DNA of 64,000 nt from an uncultured virus (IMG/VR IMGVR_UViG_3300031087_000513) (taxonomy: Duplodnaviria > Heunggongvirae > Uroviricota > Caudoviricetes), in IMG/VR virus record IMGVR_UViG_3300031087_000513. One strand, 5' to 3'. This document shows, in pieces, positions 2,140 through 61,450 of this stretch; the stretch's first letter is position 1, and each line of letters begins with the position of its first letter. The position numbers were made by a program, and so were the translations under genes. Under the pieces are notes generated by a model. That model ran no database searches. It saw only the letters and a list, made by a program, of their open reading frames with translations, and was not told the origin of the DNA.

Positions 2140-3183
2140 ATGTGCAAATCTGTAGCTGATGGTGGAGAGCGTTGCATCTACGCGGATGCAATCAACAATG
2201 TTCGCAAGAAGACCCGCTACAAGAATCGCAACATCTACGAATCCGCTCGTGAACGGGAAGTGACGCGAGCTGTTCAGAAGTGGAAAGAAGAAAACCCTGA
2301 GCTTGTTCGTGAGCATCTTCCAGAGCACATGCCGTTCCAGGCGACCCCGAACAAGAAAGATGTTCCAGCTCACCTGAAAGCTCTGCTCTCACAGCGTTCC
2401 CGTGTACCTATCACTGGCCTTCCAAAAGAGGAACGTGAAGCGATGACTCGCGCGATGGCAAAAGAACGCGAGGAGATGGAAGAGAACTTAGACAATGACC
2501 ATGTTCGCGCTATCAGTAAGTACACTCAAACGTTCTATGACATTCTCAACCGAAGTCTGCGTCGTTCAGGAGTAGCTGAACATCTCCGTGAAGAACCGTA
2601 TGCGCGTGAAGGTTTTGAAGAGCGTGTCAAGGAAGCTACAAAGAGTATGGATGAAGTGTTTGAACGTACTCCAAACAAAGATGAGCCTCGCAAAGTGTAC
2701 CGTTTCTTCCGCGTTCCAGCAGGAGTAACTCCTCAGGAATTCATTGAAAAGTACTTTGCTGATGGGTCTGCGTTCAAAGACCGTGCGTTTATGTCTACAA
2801 CAGCGGACCCTGAATTCATTATGGCTCATATGTATGACCGTAATAAAGGGAAGCAGAATAAAGGTTATGTTGTGATGGAGATTCTTACAAAAGAAGGCAT
2901 CTCTCTGCAGGACAACGAAGTCTCACGTGGTGGAGATGTACAGTCTCTGGAACATGAAGTCCTCCTTCCACGTAACTCTAAGTTCCGTGTTGTCAATAAC
3001 CGTAAATCCCAACAGTTTGAGTTTGCTTCTGACCGTAAAGACTTGAACGCTCAATACAACCCAAACCACTACTACATGAGTAGTGATGAATCTTACCAGC
3101 GTCATGGTATGTTCAAGAAGGGTGACCGACTCAACTTCCCTGTTATTCAGATGATTGATGAGAAGCTTATTGCTGAATCCTGA
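2140..3183 (+). CDS. ADP-ribosyltransferase (VIP2/C3-like, R-S-E clade) with Cys-rich N-terminus
   Basis: KVYR, FMSTT and EHEVLLPRNSKFRV motifs; preceding AISKYT..YDILNRSLR helix. Confidence 0.88.
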   Translation: MCKSVADGGERCIYADAINNVRKKTRYKNRNIYESAREREVTRAVQKWKEENPELVREHLPEHMPFQATPNKKDVPAHLKALLSQRSRVPITGLPKEEREAMTRAMAKEREEMEENLDNDHVRAISKYTQTFYDILNRSLRRSGVAEHLREEPYAREGFEERVKEATKSMDEVFERTPNKDEPRKVYRFFRVPAGVTPQEFIEKYFADGSAFKDRAFMSTTADPEFIMAHMYDRNKGKQNKGYVVMEILTKEGISLQDNEVSRGGDVQSLEHEVLLPRNSKFRVVNNRKSQQFEFASDRKDLNAQYNPNHYYMSSDESYQRHGMFKKGDRLNFPVIQMIDEKLIAES

Positions 3184-5532: not shown

Positions 5533-5578
5533 TAAAAGTTGTGGCCCTACCAGTATACTGGTAGGGCCACAACTTTTA
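5533..5578. terminator. 46-bp perfect palindrome at a convergent junction
   Basis: taaaagttgtggccctaccagta|tactggtagggccacaactttta. Confidence 0.8.
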
Positions 5579-8172: not shown

Positions 8173-8450
8173 ACCTGCACCTGCTTCGTAGCTTGCTTTT
8201 CATGCCAGATTTTGATGAACTCATCGTCATAAATCCAGTGCGGGTCAAGGTTCTGCTCAGTGCGAGCTTTTGCTGCTGCTGCAATCAGAGCCTGAGCAAG
8301 TTCCTCAGCCTCATCAGGTGTGAACTCATCCGCGAACAGTCCTCGAATCTTGAAAGAGACGATAGGGTCTTTCCCTGCTGAAATGGAAGGTGAAGCCTGG
8401 ATCGTGACACTCTGAAAAGATGTCGGAACAATGCCGTTATGGTCAGTCAT
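8169..8450 (-). CDS. hypothetical protein
   Basis: AGGAG RBS; FTPDEAEELAQALIAAA. Confidence 0.6.
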   Translation of the reverse strand: MTDHNGIVPTSFQSVTIQASPSISAGKDPIVSFKIRGLFADEFTPDEAEELAQALIAAAAKARTEQNLDPHWIYDDEFIKIWHEKQATKQVQV

Positions 8451-8569
8451 TACTGGTCTCCTGGAATAGCGCTAATACCGATAAGTTTACCATAAAGTTG
8501 AGGTATTGCCAAGAAGCTTATTCATGTGATAGAATCTCATCATAAACTGCAACCTAAGGTGAAACCCTC

Positions 8570-8695
8570 ATGATGACATGCCGTAACGGTGGAACAATGA
8601 CGTACAATGATGATGAATACGGCTATGATGGAAACTATGCAGTTTATAAATGCACATGCAAAGAACGCAGGCACTATGTGGAGTTGCCAGACTGA
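8570..8695 (+). CDS. 41-aa Cys-containing small protein (not in ORF track)
   Basis: MMTCRNGGTMTYNDDEYGYDGNYAVYKCTCKERRHYVELPD with AAGGTG RBS, abutting the next gene. Confidence 0.5.
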   Translation: MMTCRNGGTMTYNDDEYGYDGNYAVYKCTCKERRHYVELPD

Positions 8696-8698
8696 ACA

Positions 8699-9676
8699 AT
8701 GAAAGTCACATTTGCAACCATCAGTGGACAAGTGCATTCCTCCCTCACTGATGTCCCCAGAAACATTAGAACCATCAGTACGAAGAGTCATGTCGGATTT
8801 TACTGTCCAAATTGTGCATCCATTCATGTGCTGACGAAGAAAGCCATGAACTCCATCAAGGCTCGCATCAAATCATCTGATGATGCGGAACTTCAAGCTC
8901 GTGCGTTCAAAATCTTACAACCAGTTGGCATTGAGAAGTACTGCTATCGAGTGTTAGAGACCCTTCCTGAATGGAAGCAAATTGATGACCTCATCAAGAA
9001 GCAGGAAGCAAGTTTCACTGGATTCGCTGAGTACATTTGCTCCTACTCTGAACCGAAAAAGACAAAGCAGCTTGTTCATGTTGCTTGCAAGACGCATCCA
9101 AAAGGACACTACATTCCGAAGAAGGATGTTGTTACTCTTCGTAACGAAGTCAATTTCTCTGACCGTGGCTATCGCATTGCTAAAAACTGGGGTGAGCTGG
9201 GAAGAAAAGCTGTCACGCGAGCGTTGACCAGCCGAGCTTCCAATATCCTGTTTACTCAGGCCGCTAATAGGTCTGAGAAGCCACAGGAAGCCCCTCAGAA
9301 GCCTCAACAGCCTTGTATCGCACAAGTTGCTGTTGAGAGGAATAAACACCCTCTGTCAGCCTCTGAGGCAAGAATAGATGCAACTCAGTTCATCATTCCT
9401 CCTGCGCTGTTGAGTGATGAGCTGGCAGTTGAGTTCTACATGTGTGGGCGAAAGAATATGTACCTCACTGAGGCAGAAGCTTGGGTTGCGATGAAATACA
9501 ACGGTTCATCAGCTGAGTACTCTCCGTATAAATGTTTACACTGTGAGGGTTACCATTACGGACACAGCATCGTCAAGCTTGGAACAGTGCAGCAGTACAC
9601 GAAGAAGGGGAAGCTGTGGTACCGCAAGTTCCCTGGCAAAGCGAACAGGTTCATCCACCGTCTTCTGTTCTCCTAA
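8699..9676 (+). CDS. hypothetical protein with Zn-finger motifs
   Basis: YCPNCASIH and YKCLHCEGYH. Confidence 0.7.
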   Translation: MKVTFATISGQVHSSLTDVPRNIRTISTKSHVGFYCPNCASIHVLTKKAMNSIKARIKSSDDAELQARAFKILQPVGIEKYCYRVLETLPEWKQIDDLIKKQEASFTGFAEYICSYSEPKKTKQLVHVACKTHPKGHYIPKKDVVTLRNEVNFSDRGYRIAKNWGELGRKAVTRALTSRASNILFTQAANRSEKPQEAPQKPQQPCIAQVAVERNKHPLSASEARIDATQFIIPPALLSDELAVEFYMCGRKNMYLTEAEAWVAMKYNGSSAEYSPYKCLHCEGYHYGHSIVKLGTVQQYTKKGKLWYRKFPGKANRFIHRLLFS

Positions 9677-9698
9677 CCTTCAGCAGATATAGGAACCT

Positions 9699-10499
9699 AT
9701 GACAGACCTGCAAACATACCCAGCTGGATACAGCGTTATTGCGCAGCTCAAAACCGAGCAAGGTAAATACCGGCAGAACTTTTTAGCAAGCATCTTCGGA
9801 CTTAGCCCGTTACAATCCGAATCTCGTTCCTGGTACACAGGGGCTCTTGGGGAAATTGAAGTCGGGAAAGCGTTAGATGCACTCAAAAAAGATGGCTACG
9901 TCGTTCTTCACTCCGTCCCTATTGGACAAAAAGGTTCTGACATTGACCATATTGTTCTTACACCTTCACATGCTGTATACACGATCAATACTAAAACTCA
10001 TTATGGTAAAAAGATTTGGGCTGCTGGTTCAACATTCATGGTGAATGGGCATAAACAGCCATACTTCCGTAACTCTGAATATGAAGCAAAGCGGGTGGCT
10101 GAGAAGCTCAAAAACTTCTATGTCAAAAAAGTCGCTCCGTTGATTGTAGTCGTTGGTGCTGAAAAGCTCTCCTTCAAAAGTGACATCAAAGTTCCTGTCC
10201 TGAGTGTGGATAAGCTTGTATCCCACATACGCATGGAAGAAGATGCCCGTCAAAAACATCGTATCTGCACCGAAGCAAACAATGTTCAAAGATCGGAAGA
10301 ATTGCCGCAGGAGATAAGCTCTACAGACTTCTGGACGAAAAAAGCACCAGTTCACCCAGAACAGAACGAACTCTATGAATGGTTCTACAACCTCAAACGG
10401 ACAGTTAGGGTAAGAAAGCTTACCGCTTTCTGTTGGAAATTTGGTTTCCTTGCTCTGGCCAGTCTTGCCGTGCTCAATTTCTGGGTACTGTTGAAATGA
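9699..10499 (+). CDS. NERD-domain (PD-(D/E)xK nuclease-related) protein with C-terminal TM
   Basis: GALGEIEV, VLHSV, DIDHIV, INTK. Confidence 0.8.
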   Translation: MTDLQTYPAGYSVIAQLKTEQGKYRQNFLASIFGLSPLQSESRSWYTGALGEIEVGKALDALKKDGYVVLHSVPIGQKGSDIDHIVLTPSHAVYTINTKTHYGKKIWAAGSTFMVNGHKQPYFRNSEYEAKRVAEKLKNFYVKKVAPLIVVVGAEKLSFKSDIKVPVLSVDKLVSHIRMEEDARQKHRICTEANNVQRSEELPQEISSTDFWTKKAPVHPEQNELYEWFYNLKRTVRVRKLTAFCWKFGFLALASLAVLNFWVLLK

Positions 10500-10522
10500 G
10501 TGAAGCTGTGGTAGGGTAAACT

Positions 10523-10774
10523 ATGCGAACTTTTACTTTCATCCTGTCATCCTCCGATTACCGTTCCCTGGACCGTAGTATTGCCGCGCTGTTCACTGAG
10601 CTGACTCAGCCTGGAACTGAGATTGAGCTGTCCATCCTTCCTGTTGAAGGAAGCGGAACAGAGCGTGTTCAGTGTCGGAAGGTGAAGATTACTTCGGACG
10701 ACCTGCACATTGTTCAGAAGCTGCAACGTATTGACTTGCAGCAGGTTGTTCAGGTAGAAGGTTTCACGGAGTAA
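10523..10774 (+). CDS. ribosomal protein S10/NusE-like protein lacking the long loop
   Basis: LSSSDYRSLD..LP.E and RKVKI...VQKLQRIDL..VQVE align with the uS10 N- and C-terminal halves. Confidence 0.65.
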   Translation: MRTFTFILSSSDYRSLDRSIAALFTELTQPGTEIELSILPVEGSGTERVQCRKVKITSDDLHIVQKLQRIDLQQVVQVEGFTE

Positions 10775-10778
10775 TTAG

Positions 10779-10832
10779 ACATAGAGAAAGCGGTTGACAA
10801 CTCTAATCAGTTGTCAACCGCTTTCTCTATGT
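10779..10832. terminator. bidirectional hairpin, 24-bp arms
   Basis: acatagagaaagcggttgacaact...agttgtcaaccgctttctctatgt. Confidence 0.8.
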
Positions 10833-10835
10833 GTA

Positions 10836-11165
10836 TCAGTTAGTCAAGTCCACTGGAAAGTAGCCATGATTCGCTGCGTTATGCGTGCGAGCTGGTACAT
10901 GAGTAGGGACTGCGCGAAGAACCTTGAAAGCATCCTCCACTTTGTTCAGTTCACGTACCAGCGTAGAGATATTCTCACTACGAAGACCGACACTCATGGC
11001 TTCCAGTGCCTGTGTTCGGATTCGGATGTTGTTCACATCCTGTCCAATGAGGAAACCCCAGAGCATCCCTGTGATGGCGGACACGGCACGATGGTCTCTA
11101 CGCTCAATGGCATTTACTGCCTTTGCTCGATGCTCCTGAAAGAATCGAATCTCGTTCTCATTCAT
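10836..11165 (-). CDS. hypothetical protein
   Basis: ORF coupled to the upstream gene. Confidence 0.6.
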   Translation of the reverse strand: MNENEIRFFQEHRAKAVNAIERRDHRAVSAITGMLWGFLIGQDVNNIRIRTQALEAMSVGLRSENISTLVRELNKVEDAFKVLRAVPTHVPARTHNAANHGYFPVDLTN

Positions 11166-11790
11166 TTACTGTTCTCATTCTCTCTGCTGTAGCTCCTGCG
11201 AAGAAAGCATCCTTCACACTCAGAGTTTCACCTACATGCTCCATGCGCCAAGTGTAGTAATCGGATTCAGTCTCGCGGTGACTCTTCTGCTTGGCATCTT
11301 CTCTGTTATCCAGAATTTCTCCTGAGCGGAAAGGAGGAGTGACTCGGTTTGGGATAACCGTGACGTTAGGTGCTTCGCCACCGAACAGGACATCTACTGG
11401 ACGCGGACCCTTAGTAATTTCTACCCGCATGGAGGAGAAGAACTCAGGCTTTCCCTCAGAAGTCTCAGGCTTTCCCGTGCAGCAACCATCGCATCCATGG
11501 ATGTTGTCATTGCTGCGGTTGATGCTTGCAAGGTAGGCAGCAGCGTCAGCATCAGGATGGCCGACTCCATGCTTGCACACGCGTTCCAGAATCTGGCGGT
11601 CATCACGCCACAGCAGCTTCGCATCGCGCAAAGCATGGTCTGAGGGTCGGTTATGCATTCCGCAACCTCGCGCCTCGTAACAAGCGCTCAGAGGATGAAC
11701 ATTCTGAAGCTCGCCGTACTTCTCACCTGTGGCAGGGTCAATCAGCCTAACCCAGTAGCCTTTATCATTCTGTTCAAGCCAGTAGCTCAT
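11158..11790 (-). CDS. Cys/His-rich phage-type hypothetical protein
   Basis: CGMHNRPSDH, ERVCKHGVGHPD, HGCDGCC; GAGGAG RBS. Confidence 0.7.
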   Translation of the reverse strand: MSYWLEQNDKGYWVRLIDPATGEKYGELQNVHPLSACYEARGCGMHNRPSDHALRDAKLLWRDDRQILERVCKHGVGHPDADAAAYLASINRSNDNIHGCDGCCTGKPETSEGKPEFFSSMRVEITKGPRPVDVLFGGEAPNVTVIPNRVTPPFRSGEILDNREDAKQKSHRETESDYYTWRMEHVGETLSVKDAFFAGATAERMRTVNE

Positions 11791-11845: not shown

Positions 11846-12142
11846 TCAAACTTCTGTGACGTTTAGGCGAATAATCTTCGCGTTACGATGTTCCGCGTAT
11901 TCCTCAGGCTTATACGGAAACTGCATGGGGAACAGTCTCTCCACCATAACATGACCCATACTGTCCTTCTCATACCAACCAAGATAGGTACCATTTTCAT
12001 CCTCAGTGCAGAGAACTTCCAGGATTTCTTCTTCCGTGGCTCCGTACATTTTGACTGTACGCTTTTGCTGAGAGATATGAAAGTAACGAGCAGGTTCGTC
12101 AGGTTTTGCGATGTTCTCAGCGTACATTGTCCACGGACCCAT
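11846..12142 (-). CDS. hypothetical protein, paralog family B
   Basis: EDENGTYLGW...LFPMQFPY. Confidence 0.7.
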   Translation of the reverse strand: MGPWTMYAENIAKPDEPARYFHISQQKRTVKMYGATEEEILEVLCTEDENGTYLGWYEKDSMGHVMVERLFPMQFPYKPEEYAEHRNAKIIRLNVTEV

Positions 12143-12143
12143 T

Positions 12144-12491
12144 TTACTTCTCTTTCACAGACAGTCGAACAACTTCGCCGTCTCCTGCCGCAACAGCAGC
12201 GTCAACACCGTACGGGAACTGGATAGAGAAGATTCGGTCAAGAGCGACCATAGAAACCACGTCTTCCCCCGCCTCAATCCAACCAAGATACTCGCCCTCA
12301 GCGTCTTCAATCAGGGAGACAGTCAGAATATCCTTCCCTGCCACTCCGCTGAACGCGAGAGCCTCACGCCACTGGCTAAAATGGATGTACTGCTCCTCGC
12401 CCTTCGGGGTTGCAATAGCATCAGCATCAGGGCGACCAGCAAAGTAATCCCAGTTACGGGGCGCAGTAATTTCAGTCATACCTTCAACCAT
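12144..12491 (-). CDS. hypothetical protein, paralog family B
   Basis: EDAEGEYLGW...IFSIQFPY. Confidence 0.7.
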   Translation of the reverse strand: MVEGMTEITAPRNWDYFAGRPDADAIATPKGEEQYIHFSQWREALAFSGVAGKDILTVSLIEDAEGEYLGWIEAGEDVVSMVALDRIFSIQFPYGVDAAVAAGDGEVVRLSVKEK

Positions 12492-12525: not shown

Positions 12526-13194
12526 ATGAGCGACCAATCAATTGTAGACGATCATTACCTTCGTCTCAGCATCCACCACAATCACCTGCATGCAGATATT
12601 GAATGCATCCATCATGAGCAGTGTGAAGCAGCTCAGCGTGTTGCGCAGGACAAGGCGGAGCATCAGAATGACCAAGGTGTTGAATACTACGACATTATCT
12701 TGGAATGGTTTGCTGATTCTGATGCGAAAGTGCTTCGCTCAGGAAACATCAGCTTGTTTGAAGACACTCATAACGGGTTCAACTTCGCTTCCTGGCGCTA
12801 CGTCAATGATGAACATCCTCATCCAGAACAGGTGATTGATGAACTCCGTAGTACTCCTCTTGCTGACCATGCGCTTATTGGCTGGGTGAAGAGCAAGACA
12901 GGTCCGTGCTTTGACATTATCTGTACAACCCGCCATGCAGGAGCGTACTGGAATGAAGACGAAGAGGCAGAATCGTCAGATGAACACGATGACGTTCTCT
13001 GCCTTGGCGGGCAACTAACAGAATGGGTTAATGGAGTAGATAACCTATTCAACCTGTACGGAGGCTTGGAAAACTCTGAGTTCCGTGATGATTACATCAA
13101 CATCGTAGCCGAGTATACCACTGATTACTGGGGTGAGTCTGATGGTGATGTTGCTTGGACATACCTCACTGACATGGTAGGAGAATCCGTATGA
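12526..13194 (+). CDS. acidic hypothetical protein, paralog family C
   Basis: CIHHEQCEA, HP..IDELR, HALI, C...H...CLG shared with the next gene. Confidence 0.7.
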   Translation: MSDQSIVDDHYLRLSIHHNHLHADIECIHHEQCEAAQRVAQDKAEHQNDQGVEYYDIILEWFADSDAKVLRSGNISLFEDTHNGFNFASWRYVNDEHPHPEQVIDELRSTPLADHALIGWVKSKTGPCFDIICTTRHAGAYWNEDEEAESSDEHDDVLCLGGQLTEWVNGVDNLFNLYGGLENSEFRDDYINIVAEYTTDYWGESDGDVAWTYLTDMVGESV

Positions 13195-13739
13195 CAACCG
13201 CTGAACAGCATGCATTGAAGATGGTTCTTCAAGACGGAGGAATGCAGGTAGTTATCACCTGTTTAGGACATGATGAATGTGAAGCAGTTCGCAGGATTGA
13301 AGAGGAAGCAGCGACTGCGTTCTACGGGAACAAGTACTCCCTGTTTGAAGAGTACTATTCAGGTGGAGCAGCTCCTATCCAGTCTAACTTGATTGACCTG
13401 AAAACTATTGACAGGAACGAGTTTATTACCTGGCAGTTCACTGCTGAACATCCTACAATTGATGAACTCAAAAACAAGTTCGCTTCCGACATCGACGGTC
13501 ATGTTCTCATTCCGTACATTGAGTACAATGATTTTGTCGCTCCCGAAATCGTATGTGTTGGACCTCATGCAAACAACAATGAGCCATGCTTGGGCGAAAA
13601 CCTCCGCGAGTATATTGGTGAAACAGGGGAAATGTGGAGCGGTTTTGTTGGAACTGAAGGAACGACGCTTCGGAGCGGACCTATCATCATCAAAAACAAT
13701 TCCGACCATGAATGGGTAATGGTCTGGGATTACGCATAA
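13191..13739 (+). CDS. acidic hypothetical protein, paralog family C
   Basis: CLGHDECEA, HPTIDELK, HVLI, C...H...CLG. Confidence 0.7.
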   Translation: MTTAEQHALKMVLQDGGMQVVITCLGHDECEAVRRIEEEAATAFYGNKYSLFEEYYSGGAAPIQSNLIDLKTIDRNEFITWQFTAEHPTIDELKNKFASDIDGHVLIPYIEYNDFVAPEIVCVGPHANNNEPCLGENLREYIGETGEMWSGFVGTEGTTLRSGPIIIKNNSDHEWVMVWDYA

Positions 13740-13789: not shown

Positions 13790-14986
13790 TTACTGAGCTT
13801 TGTAGGCCACTGCCCAGTCAATGAGCAAATGACCATCAGAAGAGTCAGGTGCACCGTTAGCTGAACCGTCCATTGGACCTGTCTGAACAACCCATGAATG
13901 CATGGTTGTTGGAATGTTTGCAGGGTTAGTTTCCTGAGCAATCAGCTTACCGTCCATGTAGTAACGGAGTGTCTTGCCTGGAACCCATTCAACAGTGGCA
14001 GTGTGCCAGTCGGACCAGTTGCTGATACCTTCTTTTTGCAAAGAGGTTCCACCAGGGTTGTTACCCAAGTTATGCTGGTACAAGTTAGTGTTACCAGTGA
14101 GTTCACCTTCTGGGAAGTCAATCTCACCTTCACCCCAGTTTTGGCTTTCAGGCCAAAGGATGAATGCTGAACCGTAACCAGCTGCGTTGCCTGTGGCTTT
14201 GAAGCGGATACTGAAACGTCCACCAGTGTAAGCCCAGTCTCCTGTGTTGGAGATGAACTGTCCTGCAGCGCCTGCATCAACGTTTCCGATGTGGCGCATG
14301 TGGAAGTCCAGAACACTGTCATGAGCTGTCAGAACTTGACCTGGAAGGTACTTACCGTCACCTGAGCCGTCAGGATACACTGGGAACGTATCCTTGTACT
14401 TGGTTGCTACTTCATTGGTTCCTGCTGTTTTTGTGAAATCTTCACTCATAACAGGAACCCAGTTGACACCGTTGCTGGAGACATTACCTGTTGGTATTGT
14501 TCCAGCTGGATTAGTCGGAACTGGTGTTGGTGTAGGCGTTGGAGCTGGCTGGGTTGGTGTAGGAGTTGGCTGGGTTGGCTGAGTTGTTTTAGCCACAGTG
14601 AAGGTACGAGATTTCTTCGTACTCAATGGCTCACCCTGCCAGTAACCGTTCTTGTAGAAGCACACCCCATACGTGTATGTTCCTGGTTGGAATTTGGTTT
14701 TCCCTACCAAAGAGTATGCCTTTGGAGAAAGAGTCACTGAACGCCCTCTGTTGACAGAGGCTAAGTCAAGATTTGTTCCTTTTGCATCACGGATACAAAT
14801 ACCTAATTTAGCGACTGATGTGCGTGTTGATGATTTGATACTGGAAGAAAAAGAAACAGTGTTACCTGAAACTTTTGTTGAACCAGTGTATGAATAGTTT
14901 GTAGCTGCCTGTGCTGGAATGGCAGCAGTCAGTAGTAGACCTGTGGTACCTAAAACTGTTGCAGCTAATTGCATAGCTCGTTTCAT
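13790..14986 (-). CDS. secreted glycoside hydrolase family 16
   Basis: Sec signal ending AQA, Pro/Thr linker, WP..W..GEIDFPE catalytic ExDxxE motif, WHT...EW...YYMDG. Confidence 0.85.
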   Translation of the reverse strand: MKRAMQLAATVLGTTGLLLTAAIPAQAATNYSYTGSTKVSGNTVSFSSSIKSSTRTSVAKLGICIRDAKGTNLDLASVNRGRSVTLSPKAYSLVGKTKFQPGTYTYGVCFYKNGYWQGEPLSTKKSRTFTVAKTTQPTQPTPTPTQPAPTPTPTPVPTNPAGTIPTGNVSSNGVNWVPVMSEDFTKTAGTNEVATKYKDTFPVYPDGSGDGKYLPGQVLTAHDSVLDFHMRHIGNVDAGAAGQFISNTGDWAYTGGRFSIRFKATGNAAGYGSAFILWPESQNWGEGEIDFPEGELTGNTNLYQHNLGNNPGGTSLQKEGISNWSDWHTATVEWVPGKTLRYYMDGKLIAQETNPANIPTTMHSWVVQTGPMDGSANGAPDSSDGHLLIDWAVAYKAQ

Positions 14987-20510: not shown

Positions 20511-20564
20511 AATAAGTTTGTCCTTGACATCATTTGATGGTATGATGTCAAGGACAAACTTATT
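20511..20564. terminator. 23-bp-arm hairpin overlapping a putative promoter
   Basis: aataagtttgtccttgacatcat...atgatgtcaaggacaaacttatt; contains TTGTCC-17-TATGAT. Confidence 0.65.
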
Positions 20565-25204: not shown

Positions 25205-25259
25205 AAACATGAAGGGAGGGTGAGACCCTAAAAATGGGTCTCACCCTCCCTTCATGTTT
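25205..25259. terminator. bidirectional hairpin, 24-bp arms
   Basis: aaacatgaagggagggtgagaccc...gggtctcaccctcccttcatgttt. Confidence 0.8.
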
Positions 25260-53307: not shown

Positions 53308-54069
53308 ATGAAAGACTGCCAAGCCAAAAATCCCGAATTTTGCCGGTACCACGGGGCATACCATTTCCCTGCGGAAAAGTTGAGCTATGTTGAGCATGTG
53401 CGAGAATCAGAAAAGCTCAAAATGTTCCTCACCATTGATGAACGTGATGCTGTTCAAGGGTATTTAGAACAGGAATACATGGAACTCAATGCACACTTGC
53501 ATGGAGCTGAGATTAACCCTTCACCTGAGACGCTCAAACGCATCAAAGACTTAGATGCAGCATTAGATAAGTATGAACCGCTGCGACCTCAGAACGTCAT
53601 CACCACGTACCGTGCAACTAAATGCTACCAGTCTTTTACTGATAGAACCGAAGCTCAAAAGTGGATTCGTGAAAACTTCCCTGTGAAAAGCAAGATCAAG
53701 CTTGCTGGGTTCACATCAACAACGCCGAACCCTTCTGCCTTGTTTGATTTCCTACCAGAGTCTCATGCTGACCTGTCTCCAACAATTGGTGGGCCACTTT
53801 TCCCCACGAAGAAAGATTGGGATGAGTACCTTCAAGAAGAACCAGACAGAGGTTTAGGGAACTTAGTCTTCGTTTTGAAAACTCGAGCTGGAGTTCCAGT
53901 TTCTGGTTATGGTCAAGCATTCAGTCAAAAAGAACAAGAGTACCTGTTCCCACGAGACAAAGAGTTTACGGTTGACAGTATTCTTCCATACCGTAAGATA
54001 CTCAACCCTGATGACTCTTCCCGTCGTCAGTCTGCTCATGCCACAGTAATCACATTAAAAGAATCATAA
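53308..54069 (+). CDS. ADP-ribosyltransferase (VIP2/C3-like) with CxxxxxxCRxHG leader
   Basis: TYRA, GFTSTT, EQEYLFPRDKEF. Confidence 0.85.
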   Translation: MKDCQAKNPEFCRYHGAYHFPAEKLSYVEHVRESEKLKMFLTIDERDAVQGYLEQEYMELNAHLHGAEINPSPETLKRIKDLDAALDKYEPLRPQNVITTYRATKCYQSFTDRTEAQKWIRENFPVKSKIKLAGFTSTTPNPSALFDFLPESHADLSPTIGGPLFPTKKDWDEYLQEEPDRGLGNLVFVLKTRAGVPVSGYGQAFSQKEQEYLFPRDKEFTVDSILPYRKILNPDDSSRRQSAHATVITLKES

Positions 54070-57814: not shown

Positions 57815-58813
57815 TTACAGCTCTTCCAGTTGAATAATCTGTACTGGACCTTCACCACTATACCCGTGAACAACAGCTTGCAGATTGTTATTCACAACAC
57901 GATATTTGCCATCACGAGGAAGTAAGAACTCTTTCTCGTTCGTACCTTGATTAGCTGTTGCTGAGATGGAAGCCCCGCGGCGTGTTTTAATTTCAAAACG
58001 AGCGATGAGGTTTCGGCTGTTCGTTCTGTCAGGACCAGGAATGTTCTTCTGATCTAAACTCGTAGACATGAAGAAACCTGGTTCATATACACTCCCGACA
58101 GGGAACTTCTTTTGAAGCTCCTCAGAAGAGATATGCGCGAACGATCCATCCTCATCGTAGAAGAAATGACGGCGGTAAACGACAACTTCTTTGTTGTTCG
58201 ATGCTTTAGCTAACGCAGAATCTAAATACTTTACTGTCTCTTGGACGCTTTCCATCGAAGCTCTCGGCGTGAATGAAGCACTGGAAAGAACCCCATTCAC
58301 ATCAGCGTAGCCGCCCTGTGAGTAATGGTTCATTGCTTCAATCTCTTCATCACTTAAATGTTCAGCCCAGTCCAAAGACTCCTGCAACATAACAGCCATA
58401 TCCTCGCCGTTTTCATCAATGCGGTTTAGCTGGTGACCTTCTTGCGTGAATTCGCACTGCTGATATGCGTAAGAACCAATGACTGTTCTCTCATGAGTCT
58501 CTTCTACTTGTTGTTTCTTACTCAACTGATCCAGAGCATGCTGGCGGTCTGAACGAGCTTTTTCTAAGTTCATCTCCGCCCATGAGCCGCCGCCTTCAAT
58601 TACTTCACGTTCCAACGCGCGGATACCGGCAGGAGTCATATTGAACTCCTGATCTGCGTCATCTCTGAGATGCTTCAACCGGTCAAACTCGTTATAGTCC
58701 ATCTCATCATCGTTTCGATGGTTCTCATAGTAGACACGGAACTCATGTTTAGCCTTCGCTAAACGCTTTGCAGCATCTGCTGAACAACGGGGACCAGGTT
58801 TCGGGTAGCACAT
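57815..58813 (-). CDS. ADP-ribosyltransferase (VIP2/C3-like) with MCYPKPGPRC leader domain
   Basis: VVYRR, FMSTS, EKEFLLPRDGKYRV. Confidence 0.88.
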   Translation of the reverse strand: MCYPKPGPRCSADAAKRLAKAKHEFRVYYENHRNDDEMDYNEFDRLKHLRDDADQEFNMTPAGIRALEREVIEGGGSWAEMNLEKARSDRQHALDQLSKKQQVEETHERTVIGSYAYQQCEFTQEGHQLNRIDENGEDMAVMLQESLDWAEHLSDEEIEAMNHYSQGGYADVNGVLSSASFTPRASMESVQETVKYLDSALAKASNNKEVVVYRRHFFYDEDGSFAHISSEELQKKFPVGSVYEPGFFMSTSLDQKNIPGPDRTNSRNLIARFEIKTRRGASISATANQGTNEKEFLLPRDGKYRVVNNNLQAVVHGYSGEGPVQIIQLEEL

Positions 58814-61397: not shown

Positions 61398-61450
61398 ACA
61401 AAAGGGTGAAGGCAGCTATCAATTTATAATAGCTGCCTTCACCCTTTTGT
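61398..61450. terminator. bidirectional hairpin terminator
   Basis: acaaaagggtgaaggcagct...agctgccttcacccttttgt. Confidence 0.8.

Follow-up and report, generated by a model that had tools for sequence, protein, structure and literature searches.

Results

Genes and Features around the S10-like Gene

The gene at positions 10523-10774 (+) is an ATG-to-TAA open reading frame (ORF) for a protein of 83 amino acids, which we read as a loop-less homologue of ribosomal protein S10, also known as NusE (hereafter the S10-like protein). It lies in a window of 64,000 nucleotides, by which we mean the whole stretch of DNA that was analyzed, and was found where the initial annotation had placed it, with the sequence quoted there. 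The gene is the last in a run of three on the same strand. A sigma-70-like promoter candidate (TTGCCA, 18-nt spacer, TAGAAT, with TG) was picked up by a consensus scan (10/12) upstream of this run, at 8506-8535 (+), and carries no evidence of function. The first gene of the run (8699-9676, +) encodes a protein of 325 aa with no Pfam family and no fold match. Only its C-terminal Cys/His domain of about 100 aa (9374-9673, +) is conserved in distant relatives, and tblastn searches with the whole protein against two related loci that carry S10-like genes (L003 and L004) aligned residues 226-323 only, at 37-38% identity. The domain contains C24, C54, H56, C57, and H61 (domain numbering), and the pattern C...C-x-H-C-x-G-Y-H-Y-G is invariant in its alignment (A4). 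Its predicted structure has a pLDDT of 76, and the searches returned neither a PDB fold match at E ≤ 0.001 nor a Pfam family for it.

After a gap of 22 nt, the second gene (9699-10499, +) encodes a NERD (nuclease-related domain) protein of 266 aa with a hydrophobic C-terminus (Pfam NERD, E 1.2e-13), and another 23 nt lead to the S10-like gene. In L004, which is 41% identical and lies on a contig of 788,683 bp, the NERD gene is likewise followed by the S10-like gene, and the gene order is kept across at least eight genes. Three same-strand genes spaced by 22-23 nt, ending at one hairpin and with their order kept at 41% identity, could mean that the S10 fold has been put to an unrelated use, e.g., as a small RNA-binding or regulatory subunit that partners the products of the two co-transcribed genes, the NERD nuclease and the Cys/His-domain protein, independently of the Nus factors. 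However, the synteny spans at least eight genes and hence is not specific to the S10-like/NERD pair, and the neighbors match no defence-system model. Together with the retained residues described below, this leaves an unrelated use rather improbable in our judgement.

Four bases past the stop codon of the S10-like gene begins a perfect hairpin with a 24-bp stem and a 6-nt loop (10779-10832; −46.4 kcal/mol, z −10.7). It lies between convergent genes, has no U tract, and is likely to be a bidirectional 3′-end signal. The convergent gene (10836-11165, −) encodes a protein of 109 aa for which no family was found; it belongs to the conserved block and has its counterpart at 10305-10658 in L004. In the metatranscriptome run X20, which is one RNA library, assembled contigs matched the region at 10833-10985 and 11057-11242 only and none lay on the S10-like gene; as coverage by assembled contigs, this shows neither silence nor transcription of that gene. 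The contig at 10833-10985 covers the convergent gene and stops beside the hairpin, although contigs cannot show RNA ends. Further along, two pairs of apparent tandem paralogues were seen, both kept in L004: the genes at 11846-12142 (−) and 12144-12491 (−) share a QFPY motif, and those at 12526-13194 (+) and 13191-13739 (+) share an H-x-E-C-E-A motif.

The count of perfect hairpins in the 64 kb, with stems 13-24 bp long, came to 18, compared with 0-2 in each of 10 dinucleotide shuffles. All 18 are located at gene 3′ ends as judged from the list of 98 ORFs, many of them between convergent genes. They span positions 1995-63491 (e.g., 5533-5578, 20511-20564, 25205-25259, and 61398-61450); a U tract is missing from most of them, and several begin with A-runs and finish with T-runs. 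A scan for the canonical hairpin-plus-U-tract signal in the first 20 kb gave 22 hits against 15.6 ± 4.2 expected, which is not clearly enriched. The initial annotation had described a genome dense in strong terminators, which these counts bear out in part.

The S10-like Family and Its Conservation

Close relatives of the S10-like protein form ten clusters (83-100% identity) and distant relatives another five (33-41% identity, 82-87 aa), and with the profile search the family amounts to 16 clusters. The family alignment (A1) contains 15 members, all 82-87 aa long; the protein of the sixteenth cluster (P0018) has 85 aa. Two candidates were dropped before the family was defined, namely a 2,775-aa Ig-repeat protein (P0015) with a spurious repeat match and a tandem-repeat protein (P0017) whose match was also spurious. 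The positions invariant in A1 are M1, F4, S10, D12, L16, D17, L27, T32, R52, K53, and H62. Neither longer nor fused forms of the family turned up when they were searched for, which is weak evidence.

The S10-like genes of L003 and L004 differ by 16 synonymous and six non-synonymous changes (dN/dS 0.11), and the gene is under purifying selection. Between the window and a close relative (L001) there are three changes of each kind, too few to weigh. We reject a pseudogene or a chance ORF on the grounds of the conservation across 33-41% identity and of the dN/dS of 0.11. In the DNA of public sequencing runs, variants were found at 10658, 10673, and 10683, leading to T46A, C51R, and V54A, respectively, and the resulting residues are those found in close relatives of the protein.

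The family was absent from a scan of 185,579 species genomes, a scan of a viral contig collection found none either, and a phage collection held neither a DNA nor a protein match to the gene. Several family members are called 'ribosomal protein S10' in the automatic annotation of the JGI.

Homology to Ribosomal Protein S10

Used as a single query, the 83-aa protein had no matches in Pfam, PHROGs, or the PDB sequences at E ≤ 10, none among the NCBIfam models at E ≤ 10, and none in PADLOC. The S10 signal for the window protein emerges with the family profile and not from the window protein alone. When the A1 profile was compared with all PDB chain sequences, 47 of the 51 distinct sequences at E ≤ 10 were S10, including all of the top 43. 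Engineered, loop-deleted forms of NusE (3d3c_J, 2mew_A, and 2kvq_E) were at or near the top (E 0.008-0.02) and aligned with the profile from end to end. The comparison of A1 with five actinobacterial S10 proteins by hhalign gave a probability of 85.6% and an E-value of 5.5e-6 over 75 columns with 25% identity, and the alignment had one gap only, of 17 columns, at the ribosome-binding loop. Curated models were matched weakly, Pfam Ribosomal_S10 (PF00338) by three of the 15 family members (best E 0.042) and the NCBIfam S10 models by five of the 15 (best E 0.0069).

The AlphaFold2 model of the protein (pLDDT 87, pTM 0.74) has a beta-alpha-beta-beta-alpha-beta order, as in S10. Every one of the Foldseek matches listed (ranks 1-50) was an S10 chain or an S10-containing entry, with E-values down to 2.3e-6, and among the matches listed the lowest rmsd values, 1.6-2.3 Å, belonged to loop-deleted NusE (3d3c_J 1.6 Å, 3r2c_K 1.8 Å, 2kvq_E 1.9 Å, and 2mew 2.0 Å). 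In a run of an independent aligner (VIA) against 48,161 chains, the top places went to ribosome chains (Z 12.0, rmsd 2.0 Å, 83 residues aligned), and a structure search of the ESM Atlas returned an S10 cluster at a TM of 0.86. Among the viral structures of BFVD there was no S10-like entry, the best being LANA/E2-type domains at a TM of about 0.5-0.6. This class of fold is common, and designed ferredoxin-like proteins reach Z 10 in the VIA run. As a consequence, the fold alone is no proof of homology, and it is the sequence evidence that carries the claim. The closeness of the designed proteins (Z 10) to the S10-type chains (Z 12) would also suit the unrelated use considered above.

We conclude that the 83-aa protein is, with high confidence, a divergent S10 homologue. 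The homology to S10/NusE proposed by the initial annotation is thus upheld by the profile search (47 of 51 PDB matches), by hhalign (E 5.5e-6), and by Foldseek, in which the predicted fold matches S10 and agrees best with loop-deleted NusE.

Missing Loop, Retained Residues, and Charge

The loop that S10 inserts into the ribosome is absent from all 15 aligned family members, which have a five-residue turn instead. In the window protein the turn is G43-E47 (GSGTE; codons at 10649-10663, +), it stands in place of S10 residues 46-67, and it coincides with the 17-column hhalign gap. The replacement turn is the most variable part of the family alignment. The sequence and fold results agree that a five-residue turn replaces the beta-hairpin of about 22 residues by which S10 is held in the head of the 30S subunit, as the initial annotation had noted for GSGTE.

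Outside the loop, the S10 motifs D-x-R-x-L-D (helix alpha1), L-P (strand beta2), H/Q-x-R (strand beta3), and L-Q-R-x-D-L-x-x-x-V (alpha2/beta4) are kept, and L39-P40 correspond to S10 L42-P43 in the alignments. D12, D17, and R52 align to S10 D14, D19, and R72, and all three are invariant in the family. S10 D19 and R72, the counterparts of D17 and R52, are residues that we take to be key to NusE function. R14 aligns to S10 R16 and is kept in 13 of the 15 members; in the structure of the Aquifex NusB-NusE-BoxA complex, R16 is reported to stack on U8 of BoxA (PMC3177189). The family-invariant residues S10, T32, K53, and H62 are missing from S10 itself, which suggests a function of the family's own and would speak for the unrelated use, while the S10 residues that are retained sit on the NusB face and speak against it.

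The five actinobacterial S10 proteins are basic (pI 9.3-9.75). The pI of the window protein is 5.07, and values range from 5.1 to 6.6 in the window clade and from 6.8 to 9.7 among the distant family members. The gene is located outside the S10 ribosomal-protein operon; its neighbors are the NERD gene and genes of no known family.

The 22-residue loop is described as the anchor of S10 in the ribosome, and loop-deleted NusE is reported to keep NusB binding and transcriptional activity and to lose translational activity (PMC2800207; PMC3177189). This background had been invoked in the initial annotation and agrees with what these two sources report. Virus-encoded ribosomal proteins are on record (PMC6375957), and the S10-like protein, being an S10 homologue that the JGI pipeline in several cases names as the ribosomal protein, could by analogy be a replacement that enters the host 30S subunit, a role that has been put forward for bS21 and bL12 of phages. 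However, the ribosome-binding loop is missing in all members, loop-deleted NusE is reported to have no translational activity (PMC2800207), and the window clade is acidic, so that we regard a ribosomal replacement as very improbable. Since the loop is missing and the protein is acidic in the window clade, we infer that the S10-like protein is unable to take the place of S10 in the ribosome and functions outside it, as free NusE.

Predicted Pairing with NusB

According to the same two studies, NusE is the member of the NusB-NusE pair that is regarded as active, with NusB as its loader (PMC2800207; PMC3177189), and the NusB:S10 and NusG:S10 contacts are described as broadly conserved across phyla, including Actinomycetota (PMC13753749). 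The complex of the S10-like protein with NusB was predicted from the family alignment and from NusB of five actinobacterial genomes, with alignments built in this work. A Streptomyces genome, chosen on the evidence of one gene, supplied the NusB partner as a stand-in, and the true host may differ. The predicted complex scored 0.66 (runs 0.66, 0.67, and 0.66), compared with three controls of which the best reached 0.01. In the calibration of the score mark, 116 of 157 solved complexes and two of 215 mismatched pairs reached it. The runs agreed in at least 94% of the contacts, and the pLDDT of the partner was at least 79.

On the S10-like side, the predicted interface comprises residues 13, 17, 20-21, 24, and 28 (helix alpha1), 34-41 (strand beta2), and 45, 48, and 50, and on the NusB side residues 13, 16-17, 20-22, 35, 80-82, and 115-119. 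The aromatic residue that corresponds to E. coli Y18 lies within NusB 16-17, and Y18 is described as conserved (PMC13753749). The predicted docking uses the canonical S10 face. NusB-NusE complexes have already been solved, and the complex score therefore shows likeness and may echo the known structures rather than binding; the model supports NusB binding without showing it. The complex with NusB that the initial annotation had suggested predicting was thus obtained on the expected face, with a stand-in NusB and for a type of complex of which similar structures exist.

In the proposed mechanism, the S10-like protein would pair with host NusB through the face formed by helix alpha1, strand beta2, and strand beta3, for which the support is in silico. 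The element would thereby possess a source of NusE, the active half of the NusB-NusE module, that does not depend on the ribosome, and such a supply could alter termination and antitermination of the element's transcripts. We consider the chances of a NusB-linked role in transcription to be about even, and we lean slightly towards the model-based reading in which the protein, as a free NusE, joins the NusB of the host and alters how transcripts of the element terminate. Several observations weigh against a free-NusE role. The acidic charge could weaken the contacts to RNA (BoxA), and the conserved place behind the NERD nuclease gene could indicate another role. A BoxA-like motif, possibly different from the BoxA of the host, is not enriched in the window, where it occurred nine times against 6.3 ± 2.1 expected. 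A Pfam scan of 100 ORFs of the window showed no NusB, NusG, or KOW family, and no N-like, Q-like, or Psu-like genes were recognized in the 64 kb.

Alternatively, the protein might be a decoy for host shut-off that binds NusB and/or the NusG KOW domain without forming a working antitermination complex, and so titrates these factors away from the host rRNA operons, or from Rho or the lead ribosome. The predicted NusB docking fits such a decoy equally well, and the acidic charge and the lack of BoxA-like enrichment would suit a protein that binds partners and not RNA. In addition, the C-terminal domain of NusG is reported to bind S10 or Rho and never both together (PMC13753749). On the other hand, the arginine corresponding to the BoxA-contacting one (R14 = R16) and R52 (= R72) are still present, and neither the timing nor a shut-off of the host is in evidence. 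On these grounds we regard a decoy as unlikely. The initial annotation had left the choice open between a dedicated antitermination factor and a NusB/NusG decoy; the in silico support (0.66 vs. 0.01) extends to the NusB part of that proposal only.

The Carrier Element and Its Possible Host

The record from which the window was taken has 883,042 bp, and those of its relatives are 510-882 kb in size. The contigs bearing the family measure 883, 882, 879, 828, 789, 782, 777, 638, and 510 kb, in addition to shorter ones. The window has a GC content of about 46%, and the 98 short ORFs that were picked cover 90% of it. No tRNAs (ARAGORN) and no Rfam matches were found in the 64 kb, and neither virion genes nor core cellular genes were recognized there. 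The gene products of the window include a Thg1-like enzyme (PHROG, 9e-52), an AAA ATPase (phrog_8638, 2e-112), an 879-aa RCC1-repeat protein, a PcfJ-like protein, and an R2K ATP-grasp protein. Among the enzymes are also thymidine kinase, adenylate kinase, MGMT, MsrB, RNase H, and an Eco57I-type methylase, and the secreted proteins are GH16 and NAGPA-like. Genes with ADP-ribosyltransferase domains are located at 2140-3183 (+), 53308-54069 (+), and 57815-58813 (−) and have weak PHROG matches to Alt-like RNA-polymerase ADP-ribosyltransferases; the three could provide further host-takeover functions.

Based on this content, the carrier is probably a giant (0.5-0.9 Mb) phage-like element. The contig sizes of 0.51-0.88 Mb would also suit the genome of a small bacterium, e.g., of the candidate phyla radiation, in which case the gene would be an additional, extraribosomal S10 paralogue of a cell. 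A cellular carrier would also agree with the lack of virion genes in the window and with the viral contig collection, in which three of the window proteins had no close relatives. Evidence against a bacterial chromosome comes from the 64 kb, which contain no tRNA, Rfam RNA, or core cellular gene, from the short genes (98 ORFs picked), and from a content typical of jumbo phages (Thg1, AAA ATPase, three ADP-ribosyltransferases, R2K ATP-grasp, and RCC1-repeat proteins), and the S10-like family was not found in the 185,579 species genomes. A cellular carrier therefore seems improbable to us. The hairpins at gene ends also raised the question of a eukaryotic giant virus, which is less likely because Shine-Dalgarno-like cores precede 32 of 91 ORFs, compared with a background of 12%.

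Returning to the phage-like element, a luciferase-like monooxygenase gene at 141-1259 (−) is a weak pointer to its host. The protein, encoded in an element of only 46% GC, is 65-72% identical to homologues in its best 80 genome loci, of which 78 belong to Actinomycetota as judged from their titles, and by its sequence it hints at an actinobacterial host or gene-donor lineage. The GH16 glycoside hydrolase gene (13790-14986, −) encodes a secreted-looking protein with a signal-peptide-like N-terminus and a Pro/Thr-rich linker, a style that is common in Actinomycetota. DNA nearly identical to positions 8400-11300 was present in 20 public runs from 16 studies, mostly phyllosphere, leaf-litter, and plant metagenomes, and 15 of the 20 runs contain at least half of the sampled words of this region. 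The window itself may derive from one of these metagenomes. The element is thus possibly one of Actinomycetota on plant surfaces and leaf litter. The largest phage genome found in the literature searched, a different element, is given as 841,704 bp with 55% GC (preprint 10.1101/2025.01.14.633092); the 883,042-bp record, if phage, would exceed it.

Discussion

S10 serves in the ribosome and, under the name NusE, also acts as the active partner in antitermination. Both jobs are done by one essential protein and are therefore hard to study apart. Structural biologists deleted the loop to separate the two, and a natural, conserved, loop-less copy amounts to the same cut made by evolution. Such a copy offers a means, already at hand, of examining the activity of free NusE. 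Should the carrier prove to be a phage, no earlier report of an S10 homologue from a virus would be on record in the literature searched, and the takeover of host transcription elongation would take a new form, with a surrogate Nus factor instead of a recruiter like lambda N. Neither a natural loop-less S10 nor a viral S10 was found in that literature, which covered the main text of openly accessible papers, and the main texts of PMC6375957, PMC7162821, and PMC13157829 make no mention of S10/uS10.

Taken as a whole, the picture would be that of a record-size (0.5-0.88 Mb) phage-like lineage from plant surfaces and leaf litter that carries a ribosome-free NusE, the first viral S10 homologue and a natural counterpart of engineered loop-deleted NusE. 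By capturing NusB of the host, and perhaps also the KOW domain of NusG, the protein would allow the AT-richer genome of the element to be transcribed through host termination and silencing. We put forward this combined reading tentatively, as a possibility that falls short of being probable.

The closest known counterpart of the S10-like protein is engineered loop-deleted NusE, in which residues 46-67 of E. coli S10 are replaced by Ser (3D3B, 3D3C, and 2KVQ), with further examples from Aquifex (3R2C and 3R2D) and Thermotoga (2MEW). The fold, the length class (79-87 aa), and the short linker at the site of the loop are alike, the best profile and structure matches are to these proteins, and NusB is predicted on the same face. 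In contrast to them, the S10-like protein is natural, is encoded outside a ribosomal operon, is acidic in its clade, and has invariant residues of its own. With canonical uS10/NusE (PF00338; TIGR01049) it shares a homologous globular domain and the retained motifs; it differs in having no loop, in not being basic, in lying outside the S10 operon, and in its weak matches to curated models, and its identity to S10 is only about 20-25%. It can thus be described as a uS10/NusE homologue that fails the ribosomal hallmarks (loop, operon position, and basic charge) and that, by prediction, works like engineered loop-deleted NusE.

As in the case of virus-encoded bS21 and bL12 (PMC6375957; PMC7162821), a homologue of a ribosomal protein is found here on what is probably a giant phage genome. 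The viral bS21 and bL12 are proposed or reported in these sources to enter ribosomes (PMC6375957; PMC7162821), whereas the S10-like protein does not have the part needed for ribosome binding. The proposed function of the free NusE, to use the Nus machinery of the host for controlling how the element's own transcripts terminate, would rather place it beside lambda N and P4 Psu. With lambda N, which works together with the Nus factors, and with Psu of P4, phages overcome termination by the host. Lambda N recruits the S10 of the host, whereas the element described here would bring its own S10 surrogate.
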